A stretch of DNA of 60,560 nucleotides from Clostridia bacterium (GTDB lineage Bacteria > Bacillota > Clostridia > UMGS1883 > UMGS1540): contig JAQXGO010000029.1 in the NCBI GenBank assembly GCA_029006755.1, forward strand, positions 1 through 60,560, in the 5' to 3' direction. The notes under the pieces are model-generated. The model saw nothing but the letters and a program-made list of their open reading frames with translations, was not told where the DNA came from and searched no databases. The position numbers and the translations under genes were made by a program. Of this stretch, positions 3,439 to 60,560 are shown piece after piece (position 1 is the first letter of the stretch; every line of letters starts with the position of its first letter).

Positions 3439-3602
3439 AGTAATTCCTCCCATTCCAAAATAAAAAAGGGATTTACACCTTTCTTTTTTTACTACATGTA
3501 TATGACAGGCTATTTATTTTATGCCTTTTTTTGGTGCACATTTTCTGCACTGGTGAAAATGCAGTGCCTATGCTAAACTTGCAGGTGAAAGGAGGTGATA
3601 CA

Positions 3603-25625: not shown

Positions 25626-25654
25626 TTGTTAAATATTTATCAATGTGCTATACT
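25626..25654 (+). promoter_or_regulatory. Sigma-A-type promoter (extended -10) for the mdh-hdr-flx-frd-fum operon
   Basis: TTGTTA (25626-25631), 17-nt spacer, TGcTATACT (-10 at 25649-25654). Confidence 0.5.
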
Positions 25655-25700: not shown

Positions 25701-26654
25701 ATGAAAGTGAGTAGAAAGATTACGATTATTGGTGCCGGAAGCGTAGGTTCAACCATTGCCTACACTTTGTCGAATGACGATATTGCTTCCGAGGTTGTAT
25801 TGATTGATATAAAAAAGAATAAGGTGGAGGGTGAAGTTCTGGACATTATGCAAGGAACCAGCTTTCGAGACCCTATCTCGATTGTAGCCGGGGACTATGC
25901 AGATGCAGCAGGATCGGATATTGTAATCATCACCTCCGGGATTGCCAGAAAGCCCGGGCAGTCACGCTTGGAGCTTGTGCAGACCAACGTAAATATCATA
26001 AAAGAAATTGCGCCAAAGATTGTAGCGGCCGCACCGGATGCTTTGTATATTATCGTCAGTAACCCCGTAGATATTATTACGTATGTATTCACAAAGATTT
26101 CCGGCTTGCCGGAGCATAGAATCATTGGGTCCGGTACGCTTTTGGATACAGCGCGGCTTCGCTGTGCATTGTCAGAGCATTTCATGGTCGGACAGAAGAA
26201 CATGCATGCCTATGTTTTTGGCGAGCATGGGGATTCTTCCTTTATTCCCTGGTCTTGCGCAGTTGTTTCCGGCGTGCAGATAGATGAATACAGTAACATC
26301 ATGGCTTCCCATGGCCTTTTGGATAAGCCACTCGATAAAGAAGAAATGACATCGTATATTCATAAATCCGGCGGTACGATTATTGCCAATAAGGGCGCAA
26401 CGTACTATGCCGTTTCCGTATCTGTTTGCCGCCTATGCGCTGTGCTCTTGTCGGCAGAGGATTCGATTTTAACCATTTCTTCCATGATGCATGGGGAATA
26501 TGGCATTGAAGATGTTTGCATCAGTACCCTGACGCTGGTAGGGCCGAATGGCATTCGAACCAAAGTGCCGGTTCGCCTAACGGAGGAAGAAACCCAGAAA
26601 CTCCGCGATAGTGCCGATAAGTTGAAGGAAGTTATTCAAAGCATAAATATATAA
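25701..26654 (+). CDS. LDH/MDH-superfamily 2-hydroxyacid dehydrogenase, predicted malate dehydrogenase
   Basis: IIGAGSVG Rossmann fold, DTARLR, GEHGDS active-site His. The substrate-discriminating position reads IARKPGQSR (Arg where LDHs have Gln). GTG 25707 is an alternative start with better SD spacing. Confidence 0.8.
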   Translation: MKVSRKITIIGAGSVGSTIAYTLSNDDIASEVVLIDIKKNKVEGEVLDIMQGTSFRDPISIVAGDYADAAGSDIVIITSGIARKPGQSRLELVQTNVNIIKEIAPKIVAAAPDALYIIVSNPVDIITYVFTKISGLPEHRIIGSGTLLDTARLRCALSEHFMVGQKNMHAYVFGEHGDSSFIPWSCAVVSGVQIDEYSNIMASHGLLDKPLDKEEMTSYIHKSGGTIIANKGATYYAVSVSVCRLCAVLLSAEDSILTISSMMHGEYGIEDVCISTLTLVGPNGIRTKVPVRLTEEETQKLRDSADKLKEVIQSINI

Positions 26655-26673
26655 AAGAAGAAAGGACAGCAGT

Positions 26674-27459
26674 ATGAAGTACAGTTATTATCCCGGCTGC
26701 ACCATGAAAGCAAAGGCGGCTTATGCGGATGCCTGTGCAAGGCGTTCTGCTGCAGCATTAGGCTTTGCCATGGAGGAATTGCAGGACTGGCAATGTTGTG
26801 GTGGTGTGTACCCCTTAGGGGCAGATGAGGTTGCCACGAAATTATCCTCTGTGCGTGCACTTATGGCAGCGCAGGAAAAAGGGCAGGATGTGATTACATT
26901 ATGCGCAGCTTGCCATCATGTTTTAAAGCGTGTGAACGACGATATGCGGCATGTACCTGCAGTGCAGGAAAAGGTTGCGCGCTACATGGGAACAGAGGCC
27001 CCGTATCAGGGGGAAACGAATGTGTACCACTATTTAGAGGTGTTGCGCGATACAGTCGGCTTTGACACGATAAAGAAAAAGGTTGTAAAGCCATTTACCG
27101 GACAGAAAATCGGTGCTTATTACGGCTGTCTGCTCCTTCGCCCCGGCAAGATTATGGGGTTTGACGACCCGGAGAATCCGACGGTTTTGGAGGATTTCAT
27201 TCGAGCCATAGGGGCAGAACCTGTTTTGTATCCCTACCGCAACGAGTGTTGCGGTGGGTACATATCCTTACGGGAAAAAGCACTGGCCGGCAATATGTGC
27301 GAAAATATTGTTGCTTCTGCTGCCGGGTTTGGCGCAGAAATGCTCGTTACCGCATGTCCGCTTTGCCAATATAATCTGACAAAGACGACCAAAATGCCGG
27401 TACGCTTCTTTACAGAGCTTTTGGCGGAAGCACTCGGATTGGAGGGTGAGGAAGCATGA
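26674..27459 (+). CDS. hdrB: Heterodisulfide reductase subunit B-like (two CCG domains)
   Basis: 261 aa. YYPGCT...WQCCGG and ...ECCGGY... CCG motifs. Confidence 0.85.
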   Translation: MKYSYYPGCTMKAKAAYADACARRSAAALGFAMEELQDWQCCGGVYPLGADEVATKLSSVRALMAAQEKGQDVITLCAACHHVLKRVNDDMRHVPAVQEKVARYMGTEAPYQGETNVYHYLEVLRDTVGFDTIKKKVVKPFTGQKIGAYYGCLLLRPGKIMGFDDPENPTVLEDFIRAIGAEPVLYPYRNECCGGYISLREKALAGNMCENIVASAAGFGAEMLVTACPLCQYNLTKTTKMPVRFFTELLAEALGLEGEEA

Positions 27460-27833
27460 AAACAGTAGATGAAATCCGTGAAATCAGCGGGGTGAATCCC
27501 TATAAATGTATGAAGTGTGGGAAGTGCTCTGCCAGCTGCCCGTCCTATGCAGAAATGGATATTAAGCCCCACCAGTTTGTTTCTTATGTACAGCGTGGGG
27601 AGATTGAAGCACTTACTGCTTCTCGTTCCTTAGAAAAATGCCTTTCCTGCTTTGCTTGTATTGAGCGTTGCCCAAGGTCGGTAGAGCCGGCAAGGCTTAT
27701 TGATGCTGCACGGCAGCTTGTGGTGCGGCGGCGTGGCGAAACGATGCTCTCGCCGGATGAAATTCCTGCCTTGGCGGAAAGCGATGCACCGCCGCAGCTT
27801 TTAGTCAGTGCGTTTAGAAGGTATAGGAGGTAA
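27456..27833 (+). CDS. hdrC: Heterodisulfide reductase subunit C-like 4Fe-4S dicluster protein
   Basis: 125 aa. CMKCGKCSASCP and CLSCFACIERCP motifs. ATGA overlap with hdrB. Confidence 0.85.
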   Translation: MKTVDEIREISGVNPYKCMKCGKCSASCPSYAEMDIKPHQFVSYVQRGEIEALTASRSLEKCLSCFACIERCPRSVEPARLIDAARQLVVRRRGETMLSPDEIPALAESDAPPQLLVSAFRRYRR

Positions 27834-27837
27834 TTGT

Positions 27838-29826
27838 ATGGAAAAAATCGGTGTATTTGTCTGCCATTGCGGCAGTAATATTGCCGCTACGGTGGATGTT
27901 TCCCGCGTTGTTGCAGCCGCGCTGACGGAGCCGGGAGTTGTCCATGCGGAGGATTACCCTTATATGTGCTCCGAGGCCGGACAGGCAAAGATTGCAGCAG
28001 CAATCAAAGAAAAGTCGCTGACCAGTCTTGTGGTCTGTTCCTGCTCGCCGCGTATGCATGAGGAAACCTTTCGTGCCGCAGCAAAGAAGGCAGGCATAAA
28101 TCCTTATATGGTGGAGATCGCCAATATCCGTGAGCATTGCTCTTGGATTCATAAGGATATGGAGGAGGCGACCGCAAAAGCGATTGTGCTGGCGCGTGCC
28201 GCCATTCAAAAGGTACATAGAAATGTACCGCTGTTCCCGGGGGAAAGCCTTGTTACCAAACGTGCTTTGGTCATTGGCGGCGGTATTGCCGGGATTCAGA
28301 CGGCTCTCGATATTGCAGATGCCGGTTATAAAGTAGATATTGTGGAGAAAACCCCCAGCATCGGCGGCCGTATGAGCCAGCTCGACAAAACCTTTCCGAC
28401 GTTGGATTGCTCGGCTTGTATTCTCACACCGAAGATGGTGGATGCTGCCGCGCACCCGAATATTACGATTTATACGTATAGCGAAGTGGAAAAGGTATCC
28501 GGATTTGTCGGGGATTTTACAGTTGAAATTCGAAAAAAAGCACGCTTTGTGGATGCCAATGCCTGTACGGGATGTGGCGTATGCCAGGAAAAATGTCCGT
28601 CCAAAAAGGCTATGAGTGAGTTTAACCGTGGCCTTTCCACGCGCAGTGCAATCTATACACCTTTTGCACAGGCCATTCCGAATGTGCCGGTCATTGATAC
28701 AGAGGCTTGTATTAAAATGAAAACCGGGAAGTGCGGGCTTTGCCAAAAGGTTTGCCAGGCAGGGGCGATTCATTATGACCAGAAGGATGAGATGATTACG
28801 GAAAAGTACGGAGCAATTATCGTTGCGACCGGTTTTGACGTCATACAGCTCGATGCCTATGATGAATATGCGTATAGTCAGTCGAAGGATGTCATCACCT
28901 CCTTGGAGCTGGAACGCATTATGAACGCTGCCGGACCGACCAAAGGGCACTTAGAACGCCTTTCAGACGGCAAGGCACCGAAGCATATTGTCTTTATCCA
29001 ATGTGTAGGCAGCCGTTGCGATGACCATAGAGGAAAGAGCTACTGTTCCAAAATCTGCTGTATGTATACCGCAAAGCATGCCATGCTGATTCGGGATAAG
29101 TACCCGGATGTAAAAGTCACGGTGTTTTATATTGATGTACGGACACCGGGCAAGAATTTTGATGAATTTTATCGCCGTGCCGTAGAGGAATACGGTGTGG
29201 AATATATCAAAGGACAGGTCGGCAAGGTGTTGCCGCAGCCGGACGGCAGTCTGTTGGTACGCGGTTCGGATTTGATTGACAATCGCCAGATCACCGTAGA
29301 GGCGGACATGGTGGTGCTTGCCGCAGCGATTGAGCCGGAAAAATCCGTAAGAAAGCTTGCAACCATGCTGACGGCAAGTATTGACACCAATAACTTTCTG
29401 ACGGAAGCGCATCCGAAGCTGCGCCCGGTAGAATCGCCGACAGCCGGCGTGTTTCTCTCCGGTGTCTGCCAAGGGCCGAAGGATATTCCGGAAACGGTTG
29501 CCCAGGCCGGTGCGGCAGCAGTCAAGGCGATTGGACTCCTTGCAAAGGATAAGCTGCTGACAAACCCCTGCACGGCGCAGTGTAATACGTTGTTGTGTAA
29601 TGGCTGCAGCACCTGTGAAAATGTTTGCCCGTATGGCGCAATTTCTTATGATGACCAAGAGGTAAATGACCACGGCAAGCGTGAAACCCGCCGGGTTGCT
29701 TCTGTGAATAATGCCCTTTGTCAAGGCTGCGGCGCATGTACGGTAGCTTGCCCGAGCGGCGCGATGGACTTGCAGGGCTTTTCAAACCGACAGCTGATAG
29801 CGGAGGTGGATGCAATATGTCGATAG
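27838..29826 (+). CDS. hdrA: Heterodisulfide reductase subunit A-like FAD/FeS flavoprotein
   Basis: 662 aa. N-terminal IGVFVCHCGSNIA, GGGIAGIQTALD FAD fold, FIQCVGSRCD...YCSKICCMY, and C-terminal ferredoxin CxxCxxCxxxCP motifs. Confidence 0.9.
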   Translation: MEKIGVFVCHCGSNIAATVDVSRVVAAALTEPGVVHAEDYPYMCSEAGQAKIAAAIKEKSLTSLVVCSCSPRMHEETFRAAAKKAGINPYMVEIANIREHCSWIHKDMEEATAKAIVLARAAIQKVHRNVPLFPGESLVTKRALVIGGGIAGIQTALDIADAGYKVDIVEKTPSIGGRMSQLDKTFPTLDCSACILTPKMVDAAAHPNITIYTYSEVEKVSGFVGDFTVEIRKKARFVDANACTGCGVCQEKCPSKKAMSEFNRGLSTRSAIYTPFAQAIPNVPVIDTEACIKMKTGKCGLCQKVCQAGAIHYDQKDEMITEKYGAIIVATGFDVIQLDAYDEYAYSQSKDVITSLELERIMNAAGPTKGHLERLSDGKAPKHIVFIQCVGSRCDDHRGKSYCSKICCMYTAKHAMLIRDKYPDVKVTVFYIDVRTPGKNFDEFYRRAVEEYGVEYIKGQVGKVLPQPDGSLLVRGSDLIDNRQITVEADMVVLAAAIEPEKSVRKLATMLTASIDTNNFLTEAHPKLRPVESPTAGVFLSGVCQGPKDIPETVAQAGAAAVKAIGLLAKDKLLTNPCTAQCNTLLCNGCSTCENVCPYGAISYDDQEVNDHGKRETRRVASVNNALCQGCGACTVACPSGAMDLQGFSNRQLIAEVDAICR

Positions 29827-30254
29827 AGACAAACTGGAAACCAAAAATTGTAGCATTTTGCTGTAACTGGTGCAGCTATGCAGGGGCGGATCTTGCCGGT
29901 AGCAGCCGTTTGGACTATCCGGCAGAAGTGAAAATTATCCGCGTGCCTTGCTCCTGCCGTGTGAATCCCATGTTCATTCTGCGCGCTTTTGAGAAAGGGG
30001 CGGATGGCGTGATTCTCTGTGGCTGTCACCCCGGAGATTGCCACTATTCTACCGGGAACTATTATGCCCGTCGCCGTATGACGCTTTTGTGGTCCCTTTT
30101 GGACTTTATCGGTGTAGAAAAGGGACGAACAAGAGTGGAGTGGGTATCGGCGGCAGAAGGGGTTAAGTTCTCGACCACAATGAACGAATTTGTTGAAAAG
30201 ATATATAGTTTGGGCGAAAATGTCAGATTGGGGGATTTACGATGCAAGAATTAG
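29817..30254 (+). CDS. mvhD: MvhD/FlxD-like [2Fe-2S] electron-transfer subunit
   Basis: 145 aa. IVAFCCNWCSYAGADLAG...RVPCSCRV...ILCGCHPGDCHY signature. Overlaps the hdrA stop. Confidence 0.85.
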   Translation: MSIETNWKPKIVAFCCNWCSYAGADLAGSSRLDYPAEVKIIRVPCSCRVNPMFILRAFEKGADGVILCGCHPGDCHYSTGNYYARRRMTLLWSLLDFIGVEKGRTRVEWVSAAEGVKFSTTMNEFVEKIYSLGENVRLGDLRCKN

Positions 30255-31210
30255 TCGCTCGTTTAAAAGAGCTCCTTTCTGCGGGTACTGTTGACCGTGT
30301 CCTTGGTTGGAAACGGGGCGATAGTGATTGGAACCCGGAACCGGCTTTCTTTACAAGCGTAGAGAGCCTTGCAGATTTTGTATACGATGGCTTTTGCGGC
30401 GCAAATCTTTCTAAATATATGATAGAGGCCACAGCGCAGGAAGGCAGAACGGCTGTACTTTTAAAGCCTTGCGATACATACAGCTTTAACCGGCTTTTAG
30501 CGGAGCATCGCGTGGTACGGGAGAAAGCCTATGTCATCGGTGTAGGTTGCCGCGGTAAACTGGATATGGGTAAGCTGCGTAAGCTTGGCATGAAAGGGAT
30601 TCAGCACATTGAAGGGGCAGATGCCTTTGCAGGCGACACCCTGACAGTGGATACAGCCTATGGCAAAAAAACCTGTGCCTATCAGGATGCGCTTTTGGAT
30701 CGCTGCCATGTTTGCAAGGGTAAGACGCATGTTGTTTATGATGAGGTAATCGGCGCGTCCGCCGATACGACGGATATGGATCGGTTTGCAGAGGTGGAGC
30801 GCCTTGCAGCCATGTCCCCGGAGGAACGCTTTGCCTTCTTTCAGGGCGAACTTTCGCGGTGTATTCGTTGCAATGCCTGCCGCAATGTCTGCCCGGCCTG
30901 CTCTTGCCGCAAATGTGTGTTCGACGGAGATAGCTTCGACAGTGCGCAGAAGGCAAATGTCGATAGCTTTGAAGAAAAAATGTTTCATATCATCCGCGCC
31001 TTTCATGTAGCAGGGCGCTGTACCGATTGCGGGGAATGTAGCCGTGTTTGTCCGCAAGGCATACCGTTGCATCTTTTTAACCGCAAGCTCATTGGAGATA
31101 TCAATGCGTTTTACGGGGAGTATACCGCCGGAGAAACGGCGGAAAACAAAAACCCCCTCGTAAGCTTTACCACGGAGGATAGAGAACCGGGCGAAGGGAG
31201 GAATGCATAA
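30242..31210 (+). CDS. Iron-sulfur oxidoreductase subunit (FlxC / sulfhydrogenase-beta-like)
   Basis: 322 aa. CIRCNACRNVCPACSC and CTDCGECSRVCP cluster motifs. Overlaps the mvhD stop. Confidence 0.6.
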   Translation: MQELVARLKELLSAGTVDRVLGWKRGDSDWNPEPAFFTSVESLADFVYDGFCGANLSKYMIEATAQEGRTAVLLKPCDTYSFNRLLAEHRVVREKAYVIGVGCRGKLDMGKLRKLGMKGIQHIEGADAFAGDTLTVDTAYGKKTCAYQDALLDRCHVCKGKTHVVYDEVIGASADTTDMDRFAEVERLAAMSPEERFAFFQGELSRCIRCNACRNVCPACSCRKCVFDGDSFDSAQKANVDSFEEKMFHIIRAFHVAGRCTDCGECSRVCPQGIPLHLFNRKLIGDINAFYGEYTAGETAENKNPLVSFTTEDREPGEGRNA

Positions 31211-32238
31211 TGTTTAAAATTGCAAGAGAAGCTTTGCCTGCGTTGTTTGCCAAGATGGCGGAGATTGCAGATTTATTCCTACCGGTGAAAAATAACATAA
31301 ACACAGAGTATGCACGTTTTACACCGGAAAGCGCTGTGGATCTGGAGACCTTAAAGACAGCCAAATCCCCTAAGGATTTGTTTTTTCCGCAAAGCGAAAC
31401 ATTGTATACCTGCCATAGGGATGGCAAGAAATTGTCTGTTGTGCCGGAAAAACTTGCCGAGGCACCGTTTATTGTGTTCGGCATGCGTGCCTGTGATATA
31501 CAAGGCGTTGCGGTTTTGGACCGGGTATTTCTTTCCGAGCCGCAGGACAGCTTTTATGCGGCAAGACGGCAAAACGGTCTACTCATTGGCATGGCCTGTA
31601 CGGAACCGGAGGAAAGCTGTTTTTGCGGCACCTTTGGGATTGACCATACGGCGCCCGGCGGCGATGTGGACACGATGCTGACAAAAACGCATTTGTACTG
31701 GATGCCTTGCACGGAAAAGGGACAGGTGCTGACAGAAAAGTTAGCCGATCTTCTGCAAGAGGCCAAGGAGGATGAGCTCGACAAAGAAAAGGAGAAGGCA
31801 AAGGCCTTGATGGAGGCGATGCCCTATAAGGATGTATCGGTAGAGGGATGGGGCGCAGCCGCGGCGGATAAGAACTTTGACAGTCCGCTTTGGGAAAGCC
31901 TTGCAAAGCCTTGCCTTGCATGTGGCACGTGCACCTTTGTTTGCCCCACCTGCCAGTGCTACGATATCAAGGATTATGAAACCGGCCATGGCGTGAAACG
32001 CTATCGTTGCTGGGATTCCTGTATGTATTCCGACTTTACCATGATGGCGCACGGCAATAATCGCACCACCCAAATGCAACGCTTCCGCCAGCGGTTTATG
32101 CATAAGCTTGCGTATTTCCCTGCCAATAATGATGGGATGTTTTCTTGCGTGGGCTGCGGCAGATGTGTGGAAAAATGCCCAAGCGCATTGAATATTGTAA
32201 AAGTGATTAAGGCTTTTGGAGGTGAACAGCATGCATGA
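31210..32238 (+). CDS. Iron-sulfur subunit (AsrA / HydB / FlxB-like)
   Basis: 342 aa. FGMRACDIQG...ESCFCGTFG and CLACGTCTFVCPTCQC, CVGCGRCVEKCP motifs. TAATG junction. Confidence 0.65.
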   Translation: MFKIAREALPALFAKMAEIADLFLPVKNNINTEYARFTPESAVDLETLKTAKSPKDLFFPQSETLYTCHRDGKKLSVVPEKLAEAPFIVFGMRACDIQGVAVLDRVFLSEPQDSFYAARRQNGLLIGMACTEPEESCFCGTFGIDHTAPGGDVDTMLTKTHLYWMPCTEKGQVLTEKLADLLQEAKEDELDKEKEKAKALMEAMPYKDVSVEGWGAAAADKNFDSPLWESLAKPCLACGTCTFVCPTCQCYDIKDYETGHGVKRYRCWDSCMYSDFTMMAHGNNRTTQMQRFRQRFMHKLAYFPANNDGMFSCVGCGRCVEKCPSALNIVKVIKAFGGEQHA

Positions 32239-33085
32239 ATGTACCTGCCATCAAAACTATACGGCGGACACGCTGATTCCGAAGGTGGGCATCATCACGG
32301 ATATCCGGCAGGAAACGCCGGATGTAAAAACCTTTCGAGTCAACGCACCGGAGGGCGGAAAGCTCTTTGAGCACATGCCAGGTCAATGTGCGATGCTTTG
32401 TGCGCCGGGCATTAGTGAGGGGATGTTTTCCATTACTTCCTCGCCGACCAATAAGGAATATCAGGAATTCAGCATAAAAAAATGCGGAAGCTTAACGTCG
32501 TATTTGCATGACCTTTCCGTGGGAGATGCCATTACAGTGCGAGGCCCTTATGGCAATCATTTCCCCGTGGATTCGGCACTTTTAGGAAAGGATCTTCTGT
32601 TTATTGCCGGTGGGATCGGACTTGCGCCGCTGCGGAGTGTCATAAACTATGTGTTAGACAATCGCGAGCAGTACGGCAAGATTGATATTTTGTACGGCTC
32701 ACGCAGTGCGGATGATTTGGTGCAGCTGAAAGAAATCCGCGAAAAATGGATGCAGGCCGAGGGCGTGCAAGTCCATTTAACGATTGACAGACCCCAGGAG
32801 GGGTGGGACGGGCATGTTGGTTTTGTGCCGGCATACCTGAAGGAGCTGGGATTTTCCAATGACAAAACCGCACTCGTATGCGGACCGCCCATTATGATTA
32901 AGTTCGTTTTGGCGGCGTTAGAGGAAATGGGATTTTCCAAAAATCAGGTATATACCACCCTGGAACTTCGGATGAAATGCGGTGTCGGGAAATGCGGCAG
33001 ATGCAATATCGGCACAAAATATGTTTGTAAGGACGGGCCGGTATTTCGCTGTGACGAAATCGACGCCTTACCTGACGAATATTAA
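32231..33085 (+). CDS. FAD/NAD(P)-binding [2Fe-2S] subunit (AsrB / HydG / PyrK / FlxA-like)
   Basis: 284 aa. Ferredoxin-reductase fold (FIAGGIGLAPL, ALVCGPPIM) and C-terminal MKCGVGKCGRCNIG cluster motif. SD GGAGGTG. Confidence 0.8.
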   Translation: MHECTCHQNYTADTLIPKVGIITDIRQETPDVKTFRVNAPEGGKLFEHMPGQCAMLCAPGISEGMFSITSSPTNKEYQEFSIKKCGSLTSYLHDLSVGDAITVRGPYGNHFPVDSALLGKDLLFIAGGIGLAPLRSVINYVLDNREQYGKIDILYGSRSADDLVQLKEIREKWMQAEGVQVHLTIDRPQEGWDGHVGFVPAYLKELGFSNDKTALVCGPPIMIKFVLAALEEMGFSKNQVYTTLELRMKCGVGKCGRCNIGTKYVCKDGPVFRCDEIDALPDEY

Positions 33086-33103
33086 TTGAAAGGACGTGTT
33101 CGT

Positions 33104-33778
33104 ATGGACAATATGGTTAATGTGTATTTTTTCGGAAAAAAATACAGTGTTCCGGCAGAACTTACCATTATGACGGCGATGGAATATGCCGGCTACACCT
33201 TGTCCCGCGGTTGCGGCTGTCGGCATGGATTTTGCGGTGCTTGTGCCACCATTTACAGAATAAAGGGCAAGAATGAACTTTTCACCTGCCTTGCTTGCCA
33301 AACGCAGGTACAGGAGGGCATGTATATTGCCTCCATTCCGTTCTTCCCCACGGATAAACGCACATACTCGATGGAAGAAATCCGCCCGGAGGCACAGGTG
33401 ATGATGGAACTGTATCCGGAGATATATAGTTGTATCGGCTGCAATGCTTGTACAAAAGCCTGCACGCAGAGTTTGCCGGTTATGCAGTATATTGCATACG
33501 CACAGCGCGGAGATATTCAGGCTTGTGCGGAGGCTTCGTTTGATTGCATCGGCTGTGGCTGCTGTTCTGTTCGATGCCCGGCCGGGATTTCGCATCCGAT
33601 GGTCGGCCTTCTGGCAAGACGTCTTACAGGTAAGTACATTGCACCTACCTCCAAGCACTTAGTTGATCGCGTGGAAGAAATCCGGCATGGTGCATATGAC
33701 GAGATCATTGAAAAAGTAATGGGAAAATCCATTGACGAGATGAAAGAACTGTATAATCACAGAGAAATTGAGAAATAA
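33104..33778 (+). CDS. Succinate dehydrogenase/fumarate reductase iron-sulfur subunit-like protein
   Basis: 224 aa. GCRHGFCGACA...LAC [2Fe-2S] pattern as in SdhB/FrdB, then CIGCNACTKAC and CIGCGCCSVRCP. Confidence 0.75.
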   Translation: MDNMVNVYFFGKKYSVPAELTIMTAMEYAGYTLSRGCGCRHGFCGACATIYRIKGKNELFTCLACQTQVQEGMYIASIPFFPTDKRTYSMEEIRPEAQVMMELYPEIYSCIGCNACTKACTQSLPVMQYIAYAQRGDIQACAEASFDCIGCGCCSVRCPAGISHPMVGLLARRLTGKYIAPTSKHLVDRVEEIRHGAYDEIIEKVMGKSIDEMKELYNHREIEK

Positions 33779-33791
33779 GGAGGGATCCAAA

Positions 33792-35393
33792 ATGTTTACA
33801 CCGGAAATGCTCGCTTCCGTCAAAAAGGTGGAAGCAACCCGAAGCGCCCGTATGGGCATGGAGCCGCGTCGCATGACAGCGCAGGAAAAGGAGACCCTTC
33901 TGAAGGATTTCCATCCGGACTATCGGGCAGATGGCTTTGGCGAAATAAAAATCGGGCCGAACGCCGGACAAAAAGCACCGTTGGAGCTTTGCAATCTTCT
34001 TCATGGGAAAAGCCGGCTTTTAGATACAGAAATAGATTTAACGAAAATTGATTATGATACGGACGTTTTGATTATCGGTGGTGGCGGTGCAGGTGCCTCT
34101 GCAGCCATTGAGGCACATGAGGCTGGCGCAGATGTTATGATGGTCACAAAGCTTCGTATCGGCGATGCCAACACTATGATGGCAGAAGGCGGTATTCAGG
34201 CAGCAGATAAGGAAAATGATTCCCCGGCGCAGCATTATTTGGATGCATTTGGCGGCGGCCATTTTGCAGCCGTACCGGCACTTTTGCGGCGGCTGGTTAT
34301 GGAAGCACCGGATGCGATTCGTTGGCTGAATGCACTCGGCGTTATGTTTGATAAGGACGCAGACGGGAATATGATTACTACGCATGGCGGCGGCACTTCC
34401 CGTAAGCGTATGCACGCATGCAAGGACTATTCCGGCGCAGAAATTATGCGTAATTTGAGGGATGAGGTGCTTTGCCGTAATATTCCTGTCATCGAATTTA
34501 CTGCAGCAGTAGAATTGATTCTGGATGAAAAAGGACAAGTGGCCGGTGCGATTCTGCTGAATATGGAAACCGGCGACTACTTGGTTGCCCGTGCAAAGAC
34601 GGTGATTTTGGCTACTGGCGGCGCAGGACGGCTGCATTACCAGAATTTTCCCACCTCCAATCACTACGGTGCAACAGCAGACGGCTTGATTTTGGGCTAT
34701 CGTGCCGGTGCAGCACTGCTTTATCAGGATACCATTCAGTATCATCCTACCGGCGTGGCGTTCCCATCACAGCTTTTTGGGGCATTGGTAACAGAAAAAG
34801 TTCGTTCACTTGGGGCAATGCTCGTAAACCGTGAGGGAGAAGCCTTTATGCATCCCCTCGAAACGCGTGATGTTTCGGCGGCATCGATTATTCGGGAATG
34901 TACAGAACGTAAGCTGGGCGTGGAAACACCGATTGGCAGCGGTGTATGGCTGGATACGCCAATGATTGAAATGATTGGCGGCGAAGGCACGATTGAAAAA
35001 CGAATTCCTGCTATGCTGCGTATGTACTTGAATTATGGGATTGATATGCGGAAGCAACCGATTTTGGTGTATCCGACATTACACTATCAAAATGGTGGGC
35101 TTGCCATAAACGGAGACGGATTCACACCGAATATACCGAACCTTTTGGTTGCAGGTGAAGCGGTCGGCGGGATTCATGGCCGCAATCGCTTAATGGGCAA
35201 TTCCCTTTTGGATATTATTGTGTTCGGCAGAAATGCCGGTAAGGCAGCTGCCGGCCGTGCAAAGGAAATTGAGATCGGCAAGCTATCTTTGGCACATATT
35301 AAAAAATATCAAGCGGCACTTGAAGCGGCCGATGCCGCAACAGACGTGGTTTCGCCTCTCCTTCTGCCGCAGTACGCCCGCCATGTGCGGTAG
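33792..35393 (+). CDS. Fumarate reductase/succinate dehydrogenase/aspartate oxidase-family flavoprotein
   Basis: 533 aa. IIGGGGAGASAA FAD fold, QYHPTG, TEKVRSLGA, HYQNGG, AGEAVGGIHGRNRLMGNSL motifs. Has a ~95-aa N-terminal extension. Confidence 0.8.
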   Translation: MFTPEMLASVKKVEATRSARMGMEPRRMTAQEKETLLKDFHPDYRADGFGEIKIGPNAGQKAPLELCNLLHGKSRLLDTEIDLTKIDYDTDVLIIGGGGAGASAAIEAHEAGADVMMVTKLRIGDANTMMAEGGIQAADKENDSPAQHYLDAFGGGHFAAVPALLRRLVMEAPDAIRWLNALGVMFDKDADGNMITTHGGGTSRKRMHACKDYSGAEIMRNLRDEVLCRNIPVIEFTAAVELILDEKGQVAGAILLNMETGDYLVARAKTVILATGGAGRLHYQNFPTSNHYGATADGLILGYRAGAALLYQDTIQYHPTGVAFPSQLFGALVTEKVRSLGAMLVNREGEAFMHPLETRDVSAASIIRECTERKLGVETPIGSGVWLDTPMIEMIGGEGTIEKRIPAMLRMYLNYGIDMRKQPILVYPTLHYQNGGLAINGDGFTPNIPNLLVAGEAVGGIHGRNRLMGNSLLDIIVFGRNAGKAAAGRAKEIEIGKLSLAHIKKYQAALEAADAATDVVSPLLLPQYARHVR

Positions 35394-35415
35394 TTAAGGA
35401 AAGGAGCATTTTAGA

Positions 35416-36258
35416 ATGCGTGAAATCTCTGTCAATGAATTATCTCTTGTAATCGAAAGGCTTTGTATTGAAGCCAATACGTACCTGCCGGAAGATGTCA
35501 AATGCGCAATTCATACGTGCCGTGCCTGCGAGGACAGCACGATTGCCCAAGGGGTCTTAGACAATATTATTGAAAACTACGAGATTGCCGACCGCGAAAA
35601 CGTCCCGATTTGCCAGGACACCGGTATGGCATGCGTATTTTTGGAAATCGGACAGGATGTGCATTTGGTAGATGGCGACCTTGCCGCCGCAGTCGATGAG
35701 GGTGTGCGCCGCGGCTATGAAAAAGGATATTTGCGAAAATCCGTTGTGGGAGATCCGGTACGGCGCGGGAATACCGGCGATAATACACCGGCAATGCTTT
35801 ACACCGAGATTGTCCCCGGGGACAAAATACATGTCACGATTGCTCCGAAGGGCTTCGGCAGTGAGAATATGAGTGCAATTCGTATGTTTAAACCGTCTGC
35901 CGGTATTGAAGGCATTAAGGATTTTATTTTGGAAACTGTGGAGGCTGCAGGCCCGAATCCTTGTCCGCCTATGGTCATCGGCGTTGGAATTGGCGGCACA
36001 TTTGATAAGGCGGCACTGCTTGCCAAAAAAGCACTGCTTCGTCCGCTGAACACTTCTCATCCGGATCCGTACTATGCAGATCTCGAAAAGGAAATGCTGG
36101 AAAAGGTAAACAAGTTGGGCATTGGCCCGCAGGGCTTTGGCGGTAAAACCACAGCACTGGGGCTCAACATAGAAACTCTGCCCACCCATATAGCCGGCAT
36201 GCCGTGCGCAATCAATATCAATTGCCACGTGACCAGGCATAAATCCGCAGAGATATAA
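35416..36258 (+). CDS. Class I (Fe-S) fumarate hydratase, alpha/N-terminal subunit
   Basis: 280 aa. PICQDTGMA...APKGFGSENMS...GVGIGGT motifs of Fe-S hydro-lyases. Confidence 0.85.
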   Translation: MREISVNELSLVIERLCIEANTYLPEDVKCAIHTCRACEDSTIAQGVLDNIIENYEIADRENVPICQDTGMACVFLEIGQDVHLVDGDLAAAVDEGVRRGYEKGYLRKSVVGDPVRRGNTGDNTPAMLYTEIVPGDKIHVTIAPKGFGSENMSAIRMFKPSAGIEGIKDFILETVEAAGPNPCPPMVIGVGIGGTFDKAALLAKKALLRPLNTSHPDPYYADLEKEMLEKVNKLGIGPQGFGGKTTALGLNIETLPTHIAGMPCAININCHVTRHKSAEI

Positions 36259-36449
36259 CTTGAATTTTCAATCAAAGTTGTCCGCATTTGCCGTTAGCGG
36301 TGCAAAATTGTTGCAGGGAAGGCGAGAAGAAGACCTTCGCTGGGAACATGATGCGCTTTGCGGCGCCCTCGTGTCTTTTCGATAAGAAAGCGTGATGCCG
36401 AAGGAGCGGAACAACCGCATAAAATATAGAAATAGAAAGGAACTCCACT

Positions 36450-37010
36450 ATGGAAAAGCGTATAACCTTGCCGCTTACGCCAGCACTTGCCAAAACACTG
36501 CATGCAGGCGATCGTGTGCTTTTAACCGGCACCATTTATACCTCCCGCGATGCGGGGCATAAAAGAATGTGTGAAACTCTTGCTAAGGGAGAAAAGCTAC
36601 CCTTTGACCCACAGAATGCAACCATATATTATGTAGGCCCTACCCCTGCAAAACCGGGACAGGTGATTGGGTCTGCCGGACCGACAACCAGCGGACGTAT
36701 GGATGCGTATGCCCCGACCATGATGGCGGCCGGTGCACGCGGTATGATCGGGAAAGGTGCGAGACTGCCTGCCGTTGTGGAAGCTATGAAGGAGCATAGC
36801 GGTGTGTACTTTGGCGCCATTGGCGGCGCCGGTGCGCTTCTTGCAAAGTGCATAAAAAAGGCTGAGATGATTGCATACGAGGATTTGGGCGCAGAAGCCC
36901 TTCGTAAGCTTTATGTGGAGGATATGCCCCTGATTGTCATTATTGACACAGAGGGGAATAACCTGTACGAAACCGGGCGTGCGGACTACCTGAAATCTAC
37001 TGCAAAATAA
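36450..37010 (+). CDS. Class I fumarate hydratase, beta/C-terminal subunit
   Basis: 186 aa. LLTGTIYTSRDAGHKRM...GPTTSGRMD...IGKG pattern. Confidence 0.85.
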   Translation: MEKRITLPLTPALAKTLHAGDRVLLTGTIYTSRDAGHKRMCETLAKGEKLPFDPQNATIYYVGPTPAKPGQVIGSAGPTTSGRMDAYAPTMMAAGARGMIGKGARLPAVVEAMKEHSGVYFGAIGGAGALLAKCIKKAEMIAYEDLGAEALRKLYVEDMPLIVIIDTEGNNLYETGRADYLKSTAK

Positions 37011-37016
37011 ATCAGT

Positions 37017-37140
37017 GGGACGTAGAAAAATGCACAGAGCGCATAAAGCATAGGCATACAAAACATAGAATAAGCATACAAAATGTTGAAAAGTATGCGC
37101 GGAAATTCGTCAGTCGATGAATTTGTGAAAATAAAATACA
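37017..37140 (+). repeat. Repeat modules K2+E-like
   Basis: gggacgtagaaaaatgcacagagcgcataaagcataggcataca matches 37256-37300 exactly by eye and also 60448-60487. Internal stem gcgcata (37039-37045) / tatgcgc (37094-37100). Confidence 0.75.
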
Positions 37141-37255
37141 TTATGCTATGAACAAACTACGCCGCTCGGCGTACCCATGTACGCCTTCGGGTAACCCAAA
37201 GCCTGTGGCTTTGGCGCAGTTTGTCCATTCTGCACGATTTTTCTCCAGTCCCAAA
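37141..37255 (-). repeat. Structured ~110-nt repeat, copy C2
   Basis: Aligns along its full length with 46013-46125 and with the reverse complement of 125-235. Confidence 0.85.
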
Positions 37256-37300
37256 GGGACGTAGAAAAATGCACAGAGCGCATAAAGCATAGGCATACAA
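37256..37300 (+). repeat. Repeat module K3 (direct repeat of 37017-37061)
   Basis: Identical 44-45 nt by eye. It brackets copy C2 together with K2. Confidence 0.8.
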
Positions 37301-37338
37301 AGAATTACAAACCACACTATTTTCTCTATCCCTAAAAG

Positions 37339-37387
37339 GAGCCGCAACAAAAAGATTTAAAAATCTTTTTGCTGCGGCTCTTTTTTT
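37339..37387. terminator. Bidirectional terminator hairpin T2
   Basis: 20-bp stem gagccgcaacaaaaagattt / aaatctttttgctgcggctc (one mismatch), T-run on the plus side and TTTT on the minus side. Sits between the fumarase operon and the convergent zinc-ribbon gene. Confidence 0.75.
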
Positions 37388-37768: not shown

Positions 37769-39112
37769 TTATTTTCTATCCCCTAAATTAAAATAGGGGG
37801 ATTTACCAACAACATTTTTATATGCCGGACGAATAATTTTGCCACCGACCAATACCTCTTCCATTCGGTGTGCGCACCAGCCTGCGGCGCGAGAGATGGC
37901 AAAAATCGGGGTATATAACTCATGAGGAATCCCTAACATACTATATACAAAGCCGGAATAGAGATCCACATTGGCGCACATGACGCGGTCCGTATTCTTG
38001 AGGCGATTAAAGATGGAGGGAGTCAAGGTTTCCACAAGCTCGTACAGGCAGAACTCGTCCTCTCGGTTCTTTTCCTTGGCAAGCACTCTTGCCTTTTCTT
38101 TCAGAAGGACAGCACGCGGGTCACTTTTGGTATAAATCGCATGTCCCATACCATAAACAAGCCCGGCACCGTCAAAAGCCTGTCGCTGCAGGATCTTTTC
38201 AATATATGCGCCAACCTCCTTGGCATCCGTAATATCTTTAATGTTTGCCTTAAAATCGTCAATCATTTCACGCACTTTTATATTCGCACCGCCGTGCAAT
38301 GGCCCTTTCAGGGAACCGACGGCGGCTGCCAGTGCAGAATAGGTATCTGTGCCGGAGGAGGAAACCACATGCGTTGTGAAGGTAGAGTTGTTACCGCCAC
38401 CATGTTCCGCGTGAATAATCAGGCACTCATCCAATGTGTCTGCTTCAAGCTTTGAAAAGTTATTATCGGGACGGATCATGTGGAGGAAATTCTCCGCAGT
38501 GGAAAGCGATTCGTCCGGCGCATGGATAATCAGGCTTTTTTTATCATAGTAGTGTACCTTTGCATAGTAGCCGTATGTAACCATTGTCGGAATCCGCGCA
38601 ATCAATTCGATCGATTGGCGCAGCATATTTTCAAGCGTTAAAGTGTCCGGATCATCATCATAGGAATAGGTTGCCAGTATGGCGCGCGCAAGCTTATTCA
38701 TGATGTTAGGGCTGGGGGCTTTTAAAATCATATCCTCCGTAAACCCATCCGGCAAATTATGCCGCTTGCCTAAGAATTTTGTAAAGCCGTTGAGCTCTTC
38801 CTTGGTCGGCAATTTGCCGAATAAAAGCAGATACACAACCTCCTCATACCCATGCCGATCCTCTTCCCGACAGCGGTTTACAATATCGCGCACATCCACA
38901 CCGCGGTAGCGCAAAACACCCTCGTCCGGAATCTTATCGCCTTCATTTAGGATATAACCGTGGGCATCCCCAATATTAGTAAGACCAACCAAAACGCCTG
39001 TGTTATCCGCATTCCTAAGGCCGCGCTTTACGTTATACTTTGAGTAGAGCGATGGATCAATGGCATAGGCAGGTCTTGCAGCCTCACATAATTTTCTGAA
39101 TGTTTCTGTCAT
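37769..39112 (-). CDS. Citrate synthase (Si-type family)
   Basis: GPLHGGAN and MGHAIY, CANVDLYSG motifs. The second ATG (39112) has better SD spacing than 39118. Confidence 0.9.
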   Translation of the reverse strand: MTETFRKLCEAARPAYAIDPSLYSKYNVKRGLRNADNTGVLVGLTNIGDAHGYILNEGDKIPDEGVLRYRGVDVRDIVNRCREEDRHGYEEVVYLLLFGKLPTKEELNGFTKFLGKRHNLPDGFTEDMILKAPSPNIMNKLARAILATYSYDDDPDTLTLENMLRQSIELIARIPTMVTYGYYAKVHYYDKKSLIIHAPDESLSTAENFLHMIRPDNNFSKLEADTLDECLIIHAEHGGGNNSTFTTHVVSSSGTDTYSALAAAVGSLKGPLHGGANIKVREMIDDFKANIKDITDAKEVGAYIEKILQRQAFDGAGLVYGMGHAIYTKSDPRAVLLKEKARVLAKEKNREDEFCLYELVETLTPSIFNRLKNTDRVMCANVDLYSGFVYSMLGIPHELYTPIFAISRAAGWCAHRMEEVLVGGKIIRPAYKNVVGKSPYFNLGDRK

Positions 39113-39133
39113 ATACATATTCCTTTCTGTGCT

Positions 39134-45952: not shown

Positions 45953-46012
45953 GGAAATCAAAGGATTGCAGAAGGGAACGTTTAGGAGTACATTTCTTAA
46001 AATAAAAATACT

Positions 46013-46125
46013 TTATGCTATGAACAAACTGTGCCTCTTGACGTACCTGTGTACGTCTTCGGGAACCCAAAGCCTGCGGCTTTGGCGCAGTTTGTTCATT
46101 CTGCACTATTTTTCTCCAGCCCCAA
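46013..46125 (-). repeat. Structured ~110-nt repeat, copy C3
   Basis: Full-length match to 37141-37255. Confidence 0.85.
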
Positions 46126-46165
46126 GGAGCCATAGCAAAAATCATTTTGCTATGGCTCCTTTTTT
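46126..46165. terminator. Terminator hairpin T3
   Basis: GGAGCCATAGCAAAA / TTTTGCTATGGCTCC plus TTTTTT. Lies between convergent genes. Confidence 0.75.
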
Positions 46166-60402: not shown

Positions 60403-60447
60403 TTTTTCAACCTCTGACCAGCGTGTCGATTGTATCGACACGCTGAA

Positions 60448-60560
60448 GGGGCCGTAGAAAAATGCACAGACCGCATAAAGCATACAATTCTTGAGAATAT
60501 GCGGAAAAGCATTAAAAGAGTCAAAAGTTAGGGTGGAAATTCGCTAAACCATGCATTTCT
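60448..60560 (+). repeat. Repeat modules K4+E1 (runs off window)
   Basis: Matches the reverse complement of 241-364. Internal stem ccgcata (60471-60477) / tatgcgg (60498-60504). Confidence 0.75.

Follow-up and report, generated by a model that had tools for sequence, protein, structure and literature searches.

A Twelve-Gene Operon of Gut Clostridia May Couple a Soluble Fumarate Reductase to an Electron-Bifurcating Flx-Hdr Module

A gut Clostridia genome carries twelve co-directional genes on the plus strand (25701-37010 of the 60.5-kb window, the whole stretch of DNA analysed here), encoding in order a malate-type dehydrogenase (mdh), HdrB, HdrC, HdrA, MvhD/FlxD, FlxC, FlxB, FlxA, an FrdB-like protein, an FrdA-like protein and the alpha and beta subunits of a class I fumarase. 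The locus raises the question of how a putative fumarate reductase and an Flx-Hdr module might work together. From the genes it contains, their cofactor motifs and catalytic residues, the conservation of their order and the pathway context, it seems to us reasonably likely that the operon serves the reductive C4 branch and encodes a soluble, quinone-independent fumarate reductase physically coupled to a bifurcating FlxABCD-HdrABC assembly.

Results

All twelve plus-strand reading frames of the original prediction are present at their predicted coordinates. The tight junctions that it described were likewise seen, comprising an ATGA overlap at 27456/27459 (hdrB/hdrC), further overlaps at 29817/29826, 30242/30254 and 32231/32238, a TAATG junction at 31208-31212 (flxC/flxB) and a 13-nt gap at 33778/33792 (frdB-like/frdA-like). 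The single large gap, between the two fumarase genes, measures 191 nt (36259-36449), compared with relatives in which fumA and fumB are abutting or approximately 92 nt apart. No recognisable element was found in this spacer, which has an RNA fold z-score of -0.77 and no Rfam match. Domain calls previously made from motifs were all reproduced by HMM searches against Pfam or NCBIfam, and the predicted gene content is borne out by domain and family assignment of the twelve products. We confirm the region as a real twelve-gene operon.

Upstream of mdh, the predicted promoter-like site (25626-25654, plus strand; TTGTTA-17-TATACT with a TG upstream) was recovered by promoter scan with a match to 9 of 12 consensus positions, although such matches are common by chance in the region (29 found vs 17.8 expected). 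Its first 18 nt (25626-25643) constitute a Rex-operator-like palindrome, TTGTTAAATATTTATCAA, which differs by one mismatch from the documented clostridial Rex consensus TTGTTAANNNNTTAACAA (PMC8457756) and is the only match with two or fewer mismatches in the window. By the same threshold, the 300 nt preceding mdh contain a Rex box in 19 of 40 related loci and none in the other 21; the survey returned 39 matches in total over 1.33 Mb of loci. Judging from this palindrome, the NADH-sensing regulator Rex probably represses expression of the operon. At the distal end, a hairpin followed by a U-run (37334-37385, no strand assigned; -30.1 kcal/mol, z = -7.9) is likely to be a bidirectional intrinsic terminator ending the operon. 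The hairpin belongs to the dispersed repeat family D8.

A gene-neighbourhood survey was performed on related loci with enough flank (n = 57). The nine redox genes were colinear on one strand in 57/57, in Lachnospiraceae, Oscillospiraceae, Acutalibacteraceae, Christensenellaceae and others, an arrangement far beyond chance. Thus, the proposed linkage of Frd to Flx-Hdr emerges as strictly conserved synteny, and the design is widespread. In a more distant relative (FrdA 56% identical), the order hdrA-mvhD-hdrC-hdrB-frdB-frdA is kept and a 2-oxoacid:ferredoxin oxidoreductase replaces Flx. The constant part is thus Hdr-Frd, and an enzyme that depends on ferredoxin recurs beside it.

The HdrA subunit of methanogen Hdr carries the bifurcating flavin. 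The corresponding FAD/FeS subunit of the operon (hdrA, 27838-29826) scored 793 bits against the HdrA2 model and matched HdrA of PDB entries 5odc, 8rvu and 7bkb over its full length (E 6e-204, for 5odc_A, to 3e-187). The hdrB-like gene (26674-27459) encodes a CCG protein with two non-cubane [4Fe-4S] motifs (PF02754 twice), whose 10 CCG-motif cysteines are all retained (57/57). It aligned with HdrB chains 9sfi_C (E 8e-33) and 5odc_B (E 1.5e-29); its best NCBIfam models, the SdhE 'anchor' of 8-methylmenaquinol:fumarate reductase (141 bits) and HdrB TIGR03288 (133 bits), both scored below cut-off. The hdrC-like product (27456-27833) is a 2x[4Fe-4S] protein of the dicluster type (Fer4_17/Fer4_8) with a match, also below cut-off, to HdrC TIGR03290 (E 1.2e-14).

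The [2Fe-2S] adaptor encoded by flxD/mvhD (29817-30254) matched PF02662 FlpD over the full profile length (E 1.5e-54). FlxC (30242-31210), an FdhB/FrhB-like FeS subunit containing Fer4_8 and a weak FrhB_FdhB_C match, aligned with FdhB subunits of Fdh-Hdr complexes (9t1s_M, 7bkb_E and 8rvu_E; E 6e-24 to 2e-20). FlxB (31210-32238; Fer4_22, E 1.5e-30) is an AsrA/sulfhydrogenase-beta-like FeS subunit recognised by ShyB/HydB/AsrA models, and matched the beta subunit of Pyrococcus furiosus sulfhydrogenase I (9nez_B, E 7e-50), sulfhydrogenase being an NAD(P)H-linked enzyme. FlxA (32231-33085) combines FAD_binding_6, NAD_binding_1 and DHODB_Fe-S_bind domains with matches to HydG/ShyC/AsrB-type models; this FAD/NAD(P)H-binding [2Fe-2S] subunit is likely to be the electron entry point.

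The frdB-like gene (33104-33778) encodes a [2Fe-2S] plus 2x[4Fe-4S] protein (Fer2_4/Fer2_3 and Fer4) without a CCG domain. Its label derives from the weak similarity of its family profile to SdhB/FrdB chains (E 2e-7 to 3e-5) together with its cluster motifs; the cysteine ligands, including two complete CxxCxxCxxxC motifs, are kept in 81/81 sequences. The protein matched residues 19-165 of the TfrB model (E 3.7e-6), aligning with the N-terminal part of that model as the HdrB-like protein does with the C-terminal part, such that the two together look like a split TfrB. A natural FrdB-FrdA fusion also exists (P0123).

The frdA-like gene (33792-35393) encodes a 533-aa flavoprotein (FAD_binding_2, E 1e-66) with a family-specific N-terminal extension of 88 aa and no Succ_DH_flav_C domain. 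Its best NCBIfam model was TfrA (336 bits vs a cut-off of 718), and it fell below every curated family cut-off. Of the catalytic His/Thr/Arg/His/Arg set, H318, T320, R338 and R466 are conserved in 83/83 sequences and H431 in 82/83. Asn127 occupies the position of the covalent-FAD histidine (83/83), and the FAD is predicted to be bound non-covalently. A check for clustering with L-aspartate oxidase (NadB) was run; the flavoprotein does not group with NadB, which forms a separate clade (bootstrap 100/100), and constitutes its own clade outside both NadB and TfrA/SdhA, with 33-39% identity to those (33-37% to NadB). The AlphaFold model of the protein (pLDDT 52) was too poor for use.

The LDH-fold, NAD-dependent malate-type dehydrogenase (mdh, 25701-26654; Ldh_1_N/C) is marginally favoured as an L-LDH over an MDH by the curated models (NCBIfam L-LDH, 352 bits, cut-off 339; MDH PRK06223, 283.1, cut-off 283). 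An alternative GTG start is present at 25707. In the motif GIARKPGQSR, alignment to 4m1q and 1y6j places an Arg at the Gln102 position of LDHs, and this MDH-determining residue is kept, with the NAD-specifying Asp, in 43/43 orthologues. The MDH gene itself occurs in 43/57 related loci and an Asp-Al_Ex permease (C4-dicarboxylate-type) in 30/57. Both fumarase subunits scored above the curated cut-offs of class I models (fumA, 35416-36258, NF004885, 419 bits, cut-off 276; fumB, 36450-37010, NF005310, 289 bits, cut-off 238). Of the 57 loci, 25 have class I fumAB and 29 have class II FumC, an unrelated enzyme; the swap at the same operon position is a non-orthologous displacement. The predicted route from oxaloacetate through malate and fumarate to succinate holds in the light of the conserved Arg (43/43), the Frd catalytic residues (82-83/83), the fumarase swap and the permease. 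The locus context strongly supports an oxaloacetate-to-succinate pathway.

Discussion

The gene order and cofactor content suggest the following scheme. NAD(P)H would be oxidised at the FAD and [2Fe-2S] of FlxA, and electrons would travel via FlxB, the FdhB-like FlxC and the MvhD-type FlxD to the HdrA flavin. From there one electron would take the high-potential branch through HdrC, the CCG clusters of HdrB and the FrdB-like protein to the non-covalent FAD of the FrdA-like protein and on to fumarate, whilst the other would pass to ferredoxin; the net reaction would be 2 NADH + fumarate + 2 Fd(ox) -> 2 NAD+ + succinate + 2 Fd(red). We infer that the nine proteins form one complex with direct HdrB-to-FrdB electron transfer, and the donor is presumably NADH rather than NADPH. 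The established potentials are -320 mV for NADH, +30 mV for fumarate/succinate and about -450 mV for ferredoxin, and on these values the coupled reaction would release some 40 kJ/mol. It is plausible that HdrA divides NADH electrons between the two acceptors, fumarate and ferredoxin.

The novelty implied by the original prediction did not survive a literature search, as the same architecture and bifurcation hypothesis appeared in print in 2019-2020; an Flx/Hdr-coupled fumarate reductase was previously proposed in 2019. Koendjbiharie and van Kranenburg (2019, preprint) and PMC7282089 advanced the same hypothesis for the 'succinate operon' of the succinate producer Pseudoclostridium thermosuccinogenes, a cluster of the same kind that is upregulated approximately 4-fold under CO2 limitation (PMC7282089). 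The hypothesis was likewise put forward for tubeworm symbionts, which together with Thioflavicoccus possess the arrangement frdBA-hdrCB-korDABC-hdrA-flxDCBA (PMC6315080), the homologous cluster being co-expressed in the symbionts (PMC6315080; PMC13147460), and Hdr-linked fumarate reductase has been covered in review (PMC13147460). The statement that no characterised enzyme has this subunit set stood: the searchable literature and the PDB yielded none, nor any biochemical characterisation or structure of the proposed nine-protein complex or account of ferredoxin reduction by it.

Transfer from NADH to fumarate is already strongly exergonic alone (-58 kJ/mol; PMC13147460 Table 1), and thermodynamics thus does not call for bifurcation. 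The operon might encode a non-bifurcating NAD(P)H:fumarate oxidoreductase in which Flx and Hdr serve as an FeS/flavin wire to FrdBA and ferredoxin is not reduced. The analogy here would be with the NADH-fumarate reductase of Hydrogenobacter thermophilus, a soluble enzyme of five subunits; a soluble multi-subunit NADH-Frd has been characterised (Miura 2008, as cited in PMC13147460). A distant relative of the FrdBA pair (L084) adjoins only a NuoF-like NADH-binding protein, without Hdr, so that the module can apparently run on plain NADH input. We nevertheless regard this as unlikely, given that HdrA, complete with its ferredoxin-type domains, and MvhD are kept at 70-87% identity in 57/57 loci, which would be costly for a mere wire. 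To our knowledge, every characterised HdrA-MvhD-type assembly is bifurcating or confurcating. Furthermore, H2 suppresses succinate formation in P. thermosuccinogenes, which its authors argue fits ferredoxin coupling (PMC7282089).

Alternatively, two enzymes might communicate through a soluble thiol/disulfide in the manner of methanogen TfrAB, with Flx-Hdr bifurcating to ferredoxin and to a disulfide at HdrB and a thiol:fumarate reductase re-oxidising the thiol. Such a shuttle has been weighed for the tubeworm-symbiont cluster (PMC6315080 Text S1 Note 3), and is consistent with the fully intact CCG motifs of HdrB and with the flavoprotein scoring best against TfrA among curated models. We consider it decidedly unlikely, however, as no thiol carrier gene candidate is conserved in the related loci, and a single assembly accounts better for the FrdB-FrdA fusion and the strictly kept hdr-flx-frd gene order. 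Thiol oxidation in TfrB takes place at its CCG domain; the FrdB-like protein lacks this domain and the operon has one CCG protein only, leaving a shuttle without its second catalytic site. The disulfide-reductase site of HdrB is nevertheless complete, which speaks against the proposed scheme to the extent that a thiol/disulfide intermediate might still be in use.

That the flavoprotein is instead an L-aspartate-oxidase-like or other enoate/2-enoate reductase, its adjacency to fumarase incidental, is highly improbable: although it is nearly equidistant from NadB and Sdh/Frd/TfrA, with NadB models scoring only about 70 bits below TfrA, and departs from Sdh/Frd at both termini, it lies outside the NadB clade, is always accompanied by an FeS partner, which NadB is not known to have, and shares its operon with alternating, unrelated fumarases, MDH and an Asp-Al_Ex-type permease, as well as having a counterpart in the cluster of succinate-producing P. 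thermosuccinogenes described above.

If fumarate reduction is indeed coupled to bifurcation by Flx-Hdr, the reduced ferredoxin could power Rnf or H2 formation, and the operon would thereby provide these Clostridia with a quinone-free equivalent of fumarate respiration.

Operon organisation and flanks

All 12 forward-strand ORFs of the original prediction (25701-37010) were found in the window with the junctions it had listed, in the order mdh, hdrB, hdrC, hdrA, flxD/mvhD, flxC, flxB, flxA, frdB-like, frdA-like, fumA and fumB. Four gene pairs overlap (27456/27459, as ATGA; 29817/29826; 30242/30254; 32231/32238) and one junction has a single base in common (TAATG at 31208-31212). The other intergenic gaps measure 13 to 22 nt, with the exception of the 191 nt separating fumA from fumB (36259-36449, +). 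This spacer holds no significant fold, repeat or ORF: its predicted fold is no better than that of shuffled sequences (z = -0.77) and it is not among the copies of the dispersed repeat of the window. fumA and fumB abut in most relatives (loci L005, L010, L011) and lie about 92 nt apart in L004. At 37334-37385, a very stable hairpin (-30.1 kcal/mol, z = -7.9) and its U-run form the obvious terminator of the operon. Scans for sigma-70 and terminator consensus sequences within the operon returned weak matches only, at approximately the rate expected by chance, and these were not accepted as evidence for internal transcription units.

The 5' neighbours of the operon are a divergent DNA-alkylation-repair-like gene and feoB. 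The latter (22469-24811, two genes upstream of the FeS-rich operon) encodes a ferrous-iron transporter with a fused FeoA-like N-terminal segment (FeoA match at residues 21-73). On the 3' side, a convergent gene (37769-39118, -) encodes citrate synthase (PRK14032, 683 bits; cut-off 426), a second enzyme consuming oxaloacetate. A dispersed intergenic repeat of approximately 100-370 nt is present at 96-366 (inverted), 37017-37385, 45979-46163 and 60446-60560, with copies 80-93% identical; the copy directly 3' of fumB includes the same 46-nt stretch twice, without a mismatch (37017-37062, 37256-37301), and carries the terminator hairpin at its end. The repeat resembles a MITE or REP element, and the entire window, repeat included, gave no match to Rfam. 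Further upstream, an SU10-type phage portal homologue (3531-5261) and a forward-strand ORF with approximately 590 nt of 9-nt-periodic collagen-like (Gly-X-Y) repeats (9037-10482, repeats at 9614-10201) suggest a prophage or phage-remnant region.

Conservation of the operon and of its dehydrogenase and fumarase

When each GTDB species was scanned through a single genome, confirmed relatives were present in at least 582 species-level genomes. Close homologues of the FrdA-like protein number more than 8000, the best of which (82-86% identical) belong to Lachnospiraceae, Oscillospiraceae and Blautia ('Ruminococcus sp. 5_1_39BFAA'); the exact window protein is on deposit as 'FAD-dependent oxidoreductase' from a Clostridia MAG. 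Loci taken from the scan were the closest 80, at 69% identity or more, and 81 distinct loci were fetched. The nine redox genes, hdrB to frdA, were present, colinear and co-directional in every locus with room for all nine (57/57). Clostridia-like copies of the operon (L079, L074, L063 and L052; FrdA 69-71% identical) also occur in genomes labelled Bacteroides uniformis, Bacteroidaceae, Planctomycetota and Synergistaceae, which points to mis-binning or horizontal transfer.

The two fumarase proteins score above the curated cut-offs for the class I two-subunit enzyme (NF004885, 419 against 276; NF005310, 289 against 238). In 25 of the 57 loci, class I fumAB lie downstream as in the window, while in 29 the unrelated class II fumC is found between mdh and hdrB instead. 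This swap of fumarase class within the same operon is strong evidence for fumarate as an intermediate. An Asp-Al_Ex-family permease is encoded directly 3' of frdA in 30/57 loci, and such a permease fits succinate export. Accessory genes vary by lineage; in Blautia (L001), for instance, a divergent LysR regulator (367-1275, -) flanks the operon and a DUF1275 membrane protein (13205-13984) follows fumB.

mdh is present in 43/57 loci. Curated models score gene 1 slightly higher as L-LDH than as MDH, and the L-LDH models also exceed their cut-offs. The residue at the discriminating Gln/Arg102 position is nonetheless Arg (GIARKPG aligned with AGAAQKPG of LDH 4m1q), and both this Arg and the NAD-specifying Asp are kept in 43/43 orthologues. 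A published survey discarded Q102 sequences as likely LDHs (PMC13147460). The 'malate-type' label originally given to gene 1 therefore holds on the strength of the conserved discriminator Arg, despite the L-LDH model scores.

The Hdr and Flx subunits

Searches with Pfam and NCBIfam models reproduced every product call that had been made from motifs. HdrA aligns over its full length (residues 3-660) with residues 5-649 of 5odc_A, the structurally characterised bifurcating HdrA of Methanothermococcus (E 6e-204), and possesses the FAD domain and FeS/ferredoxin domains that characterise the FlxABCD-HdrABC type. Its score of 794 falls below the methanogen-specific NCBIfam cut-off of 1100, as expected for a bacterial homologue. 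HdrB contains PF02754 twice and matches solved HdrB chains with E-values of 1e-29 to 1e-33; all ten Cys residues of its CCG motifs align with 5odc_B/9sfi_C and are kept in 57/57 loci. HdrC is a dicluster protein matching Fer4_17/TIGR03290, and MvhD/FlxD has a complete PF02662 domain (E 1.5e-54).

Within the Flx module, FlxA combines FAD_binding_6, NAD_binding_1 and DHODB_Fe-S_bind domains and is of the FAD/NAD(P)/[2Fe-2S] type, while FlxB has its match in the beta subunit of sulfhydrogenase I (9nez_B, E 7e-50). In methanogen Fdh-Hdr complexes, the homologue of FlxC is FdhB (E 6e-24 to 2e-20), which fits Flx as the electron-input module. The gene order hdrB-C-A-flxD-C-B-A of the window recurs in 57/57 loci and is essentially that of Desulfovibrio flx-hdr.

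The FrdB-like and FrdA-like proteins

The FrdB-like protein (gene 9) has Fer2_3/Fer2_4 and Fer4 domains in the cluster order of SdhB/FrdB, an N-terminal [2Fe-2S] site followed by two further motifs, and the ligands C39/C44/C47/C65, C110/113/116/120 and C148/151/154/158 are kept in 81/81 sequences. The third motif has its complete four Cys, so that a second [4Fe-4S] cluster is predicted. Matches to SdhB/FrdB chains are weak (E 2e-7 to 3e-5) and stand amid generic ferredoxin matches; TIGR00384 is matched at E 2e-4, far under its cut-off. A domain search found no CCG domain in this protein. On the model of TfrB, gene 9 covers positions 19-165 and gene 2 (HdrB) positions 415-484. In one homologue (P0123, 727 aa), the FrdB-like and FrdA-like proteins are naturally fused into a single polypeptide.

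The FrdA-like protein (533 aa) matches PF00890 (FAD_binding_2; E 1e-66) and displays the Sdh/Frd active-site set of His-Pro-Thr, Arg proton donor, second His and second Arg: H318/T320/R338/H431/R466 align with these motifs and are kept in 82-83 of 83 loci. At the position of the His that binds FAD covalently, all 83 sequences have Asn (Asn127 in the window). Soluble fumarate reductases typically bind their FAD non-covalently. PF02910 (Succ_DH_flav_C) is absent, with approximately 60 residues following the FAD domain, and the N-terminus bears a conserved extension of 88 residues. No curated family cut-off for TfrA, Sdh/Frd or NadB is reached, and the margin is wide (score/cut-off: TfrA 336/718, PRK07803 272/819, TIGR01812 264/567, TIGR00551 251/453, PRK07804 266/639).

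A neighbour-joining tree (429 columns, 100 bootstraps) was built from labelled representatives, which had been drawn from 1.84 billion cluster representatives by exhaustive search. The NadB sequences group together with 100/100 support and leave the window protein outside; the latter falls into a separate clade with short forms of approximately 410 aa (100/100), outside the TfrA/SdhA group, and is about equidistant (33-39% identity) from TfrA-like, SdhA/FrdA and NadB sequences. Clustering with NadB or AprA, which the original prediction had named as evidence against itself, was not seen in this tree. An identity as L-aspartate oxidase was rejected on the basis of the tree together with the operon context. 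As judged from its sequence, the FrdA-like protein lies outside TfrA and SdhA/FrdA proper, and its assignment to fumarate is based mainly on context. This flavoprotein clade has no representative in the PDB. Modelled with AlphaFold2 from an alignment of 17 sequences at 82-86% identity, the window protein reached a pLDDT of 52, too low for use.

Outside Clostridia, relatives that share the N-terminal extension are found at 44-47% identity, in a marine Gammaproteobacteria MAG (L084) and in Prochlorococcus sp. MIT 1201 (P0285). At L084 (9366-12891), frdB-frdA (FrdA 47% identical) is followed by a gene for a NuoF-like protein (Complex1_51K and NADH_4Fe-4S), and the three genes could encode a three-subunit NADH:fumarate reductase without Hdr. 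A metagenome contig (L086, 811-9771; FrdA 56% identical) has korD/A/B/C-type 2-oxoacid:ferredoxin oxidoreductase genes immediately 5' of hdrA-mvhD-hdrC-hdrB-frdB-frdA and no flx, and resembles the published rTCA cluster of tubeworm symbionts. In these distant relatives, the FrdBA pair is kept and the partner module changed.

A predicted Rex operator

An 18-nt palindrome, TTGTTAAATATTTATCAA (25626-25643), makes up the -35 part of the promoter-like site. It has one mismatch to the clostridial Rex operator consensus TTGTTAANNNNTTAACAA (PMC8457756) and is the sole match in the window when up to two mismatches are allowed. Rex-type boxes lie at most 300 nt upstream of mdh in 19/40 related loci, compared with 39 boxes in the whole 1.33 Mb fetched. 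A rex gene is found beside the operon in one relative (Yeguia hominis, L081; 12925-13548, after the permease). This predicted Rex-type operator in the promoter region of the operon is first noted here. NADH-responsive derepression would suit an NADH-consuming branch.

Proposed electron path

Assignment of the operon to the pathway from oxaloacetate to succinate is well supported. For the redox module, the bifurcation model of the original prediction is the best-supported reading and is plausible. NAD(P)H would deliver electrons at FlxA, from where FlxB, FlxC and FlxD would carry them on to the HdrA flavin. The high-potential branch would then run from HdrC through HdrB and FrdB to the FAD of FrdA and so to fumarate, and the low-potential branch would reduce ferredoxin. 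Standard potentials give approximately 40 kJ/mol as the energy released by the coupled reaction. We infer bifurcation itself, as well as complex formation, donor specificity and ferredoxin reduction.

Electrons might alternatively pass between Flx-Hdr and the fumarate reductase by way of a thiol shuttle. We give this explanation less weight, as the FrdB-like protein has no CCG domain and the operon consequently encodes a single thiol/disulfide site. Direct transfer from HdrB to FrdB is favoured for this reason, and also because genes 9 and 2 resemble a split TfrB. Extending direct transfer to the whole system, we tentatively propose that the nine redox proteins may constitute one cytoplasmic, flavin-based bifurcating NADH:fumarate/ferredoxin supercomplex in which the non-cubane CCG clusters of HdrB relay electrons directly to the FrdB-like protein with no disulfide reduction. 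Together with Rnf or a hydrogenase, and under Rex control, such a complex would sustain quinone- and cytochrome-free fumarate respiration in at least several hundred species of gut and rumen Clostridia, and could be a major, hitherto unassigned route to intestinal succinate. We consider this full proposal possible, and slightly more apt to fail in some part than to hold throughout.

Comparison with known systems

Both the architecture and the bifurcation hypothesis have been in print since 2019-2020, in work on Pseudoclostridium thermosuccinogenes and on tubeworm symbionts. As described there, the 'succinate operon' of P. thermosuccinogenes comprises a fumarate hydratase, seven Flx-Hdr genes, two fumarate reductase genes and a putative transporter (PMC7282089; Koendjbiharie & van Kranenburg 2019 preprint, doi 10.20944/preprints201912.0288.v1). 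Its transcripts rise approximately 4-fold under CO2 limitation, and its authors proposed that succinate formation is coupled to ferredoxin reduction (PMC7282089). The hypothesis, NADH bifurcation to fumarate and ferredoxin, is the same as that considered here. As published, the layout resembles that of the 'type 2' relatives in our set (fumarase, nine redox genes, putative transporter). The window differs: in the published description, fumarate hydratase comes first and a hypothetical protein, regarded by the authors as a possible succinate transporter, comes last, whereas in the window operon mdh is the first gene, the split class I fumAB are the last, and a transporter gene is absent.

The second published case is the rTCA cluster of tubeworm symbionts and Thioflavicoccus mobilis, frdB-frdA-hdrC-hdrB-korDABC-hdrA-flxDCBA (Rubin-Blum et al., PMC6315080). 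Its genes are co-expressed, and the proposed complex would bifurcate NADH electrons to fumarate and ferredoxin (PMC6315080; PMC13147460); a 2026 survey restates the idea and reports co-expression (PMC13147460). A TfrAB/FrdAB-like pair is interleaved with flxABCD-hdrABC there, as in the window. However, the hosts are autotrophic (rTCA) Gammaproteobacteria, a 2-oxoglutarate:ferredoxin oxidoreductase is embedded, the gene order is different, and mdh and fumarase are absent from the cluster.

With Desulfovibrio vulgaris FlxABCD-HdrABC (Ramos et al. 2015, as cited in PMC7282089 and PMC6315080), the window shares seven subunit types, flxDCBA following hdrA, and a proposed NADH bifurcation to ferredoxin and a high-potential acceptor. 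In Desulfovibrio, the partner is an alcohol dehydrogenase and the proposed acceptor the DsrC disulfide, in place of FrdBA, fumarase, MDH and fumarate in the window. The methanogen complexes MvhAGD-HdrABC and Fdh-Hdr (PDB 5odc, 7bkb, 8rvu) contain clear homologues of HdrA, HdrB, HdrC and MvhD, and their FdhB is akin to FlxC. Their donor module is a hydrogenase or formate dehydrogenase rather than the NAD(P)H-type Flx, and the window HdrB is approximately 30 residues shorter. To our knowledge, the CoM-S-S-CoB heterodisulfide is not an expected substrate in bacteria.

Methanogen TfrAB provides, in TfrA, the best curated model for the window flavoprotein; its FeS subunit likewise has a [2Fe-2S] and two complete [4Fe-4S] motifs, with CCG chemistry in the same system. 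TfrB fuses the FeS and CCG parts, whereas in the window these are separate proteins, encoded six genes apart. Moreover, the window flavoprotein does not fall within the TfrA-like clade, its N-terminus is extended and its C-terminal domain missing, and its proposed donor is NAD(P)H via HdrA instead of CoM-SH/CoB-SH. Type E SdhABE enzymes (succinate:quinone/methylmenaquinol:fumarate reductases) also join a CCG protein to an SdhA/SdhB-type pair, and the SdhE CCG 'anchor' model is the top match of gene 2 (141 bits, far under the cut-off of 500). Unlike SdhE, the window CCG protein belongs to an hdrBCA unit. Type E enzymes are membrane-associated and quinone-linked.

A characterised cytoplasmic NADH:fumarate reductase is the five-subunit, irreversible, quinone-independent FrdABCDE of Hydrogenobacter thermophilus (Miura et al. 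2008, as summarised in PMC13147460). This enzyme is not reported to bifurcate and is not known to contain HdrA or MvhD.

Significance

The searchable literature yielded hypothesis papers, and no biochemical or structural characterisation of a Flx-Hdr fumarate reductase. The window adds an instance and comparative detail, and no new concept: the fumarase class swap, the non-covalent-FAD signature, the distinct flavoprotein clade, the FdhB-like FlxC and the predicted Rex operator. The value of the finding is in this detail and in the wide distribution of the system in gut Clostridia. If the mechanism is true, fumarate would count among the few high-potential acceptors known to drive flavin-based bifurcation, and it would be explained how Clostridia free of menaquinone might draw energy from making succinate. 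The family, being both very common and very conserved, is probably relevant to succinate production in the human and ruminant gut and to the engineering of succinate producers.
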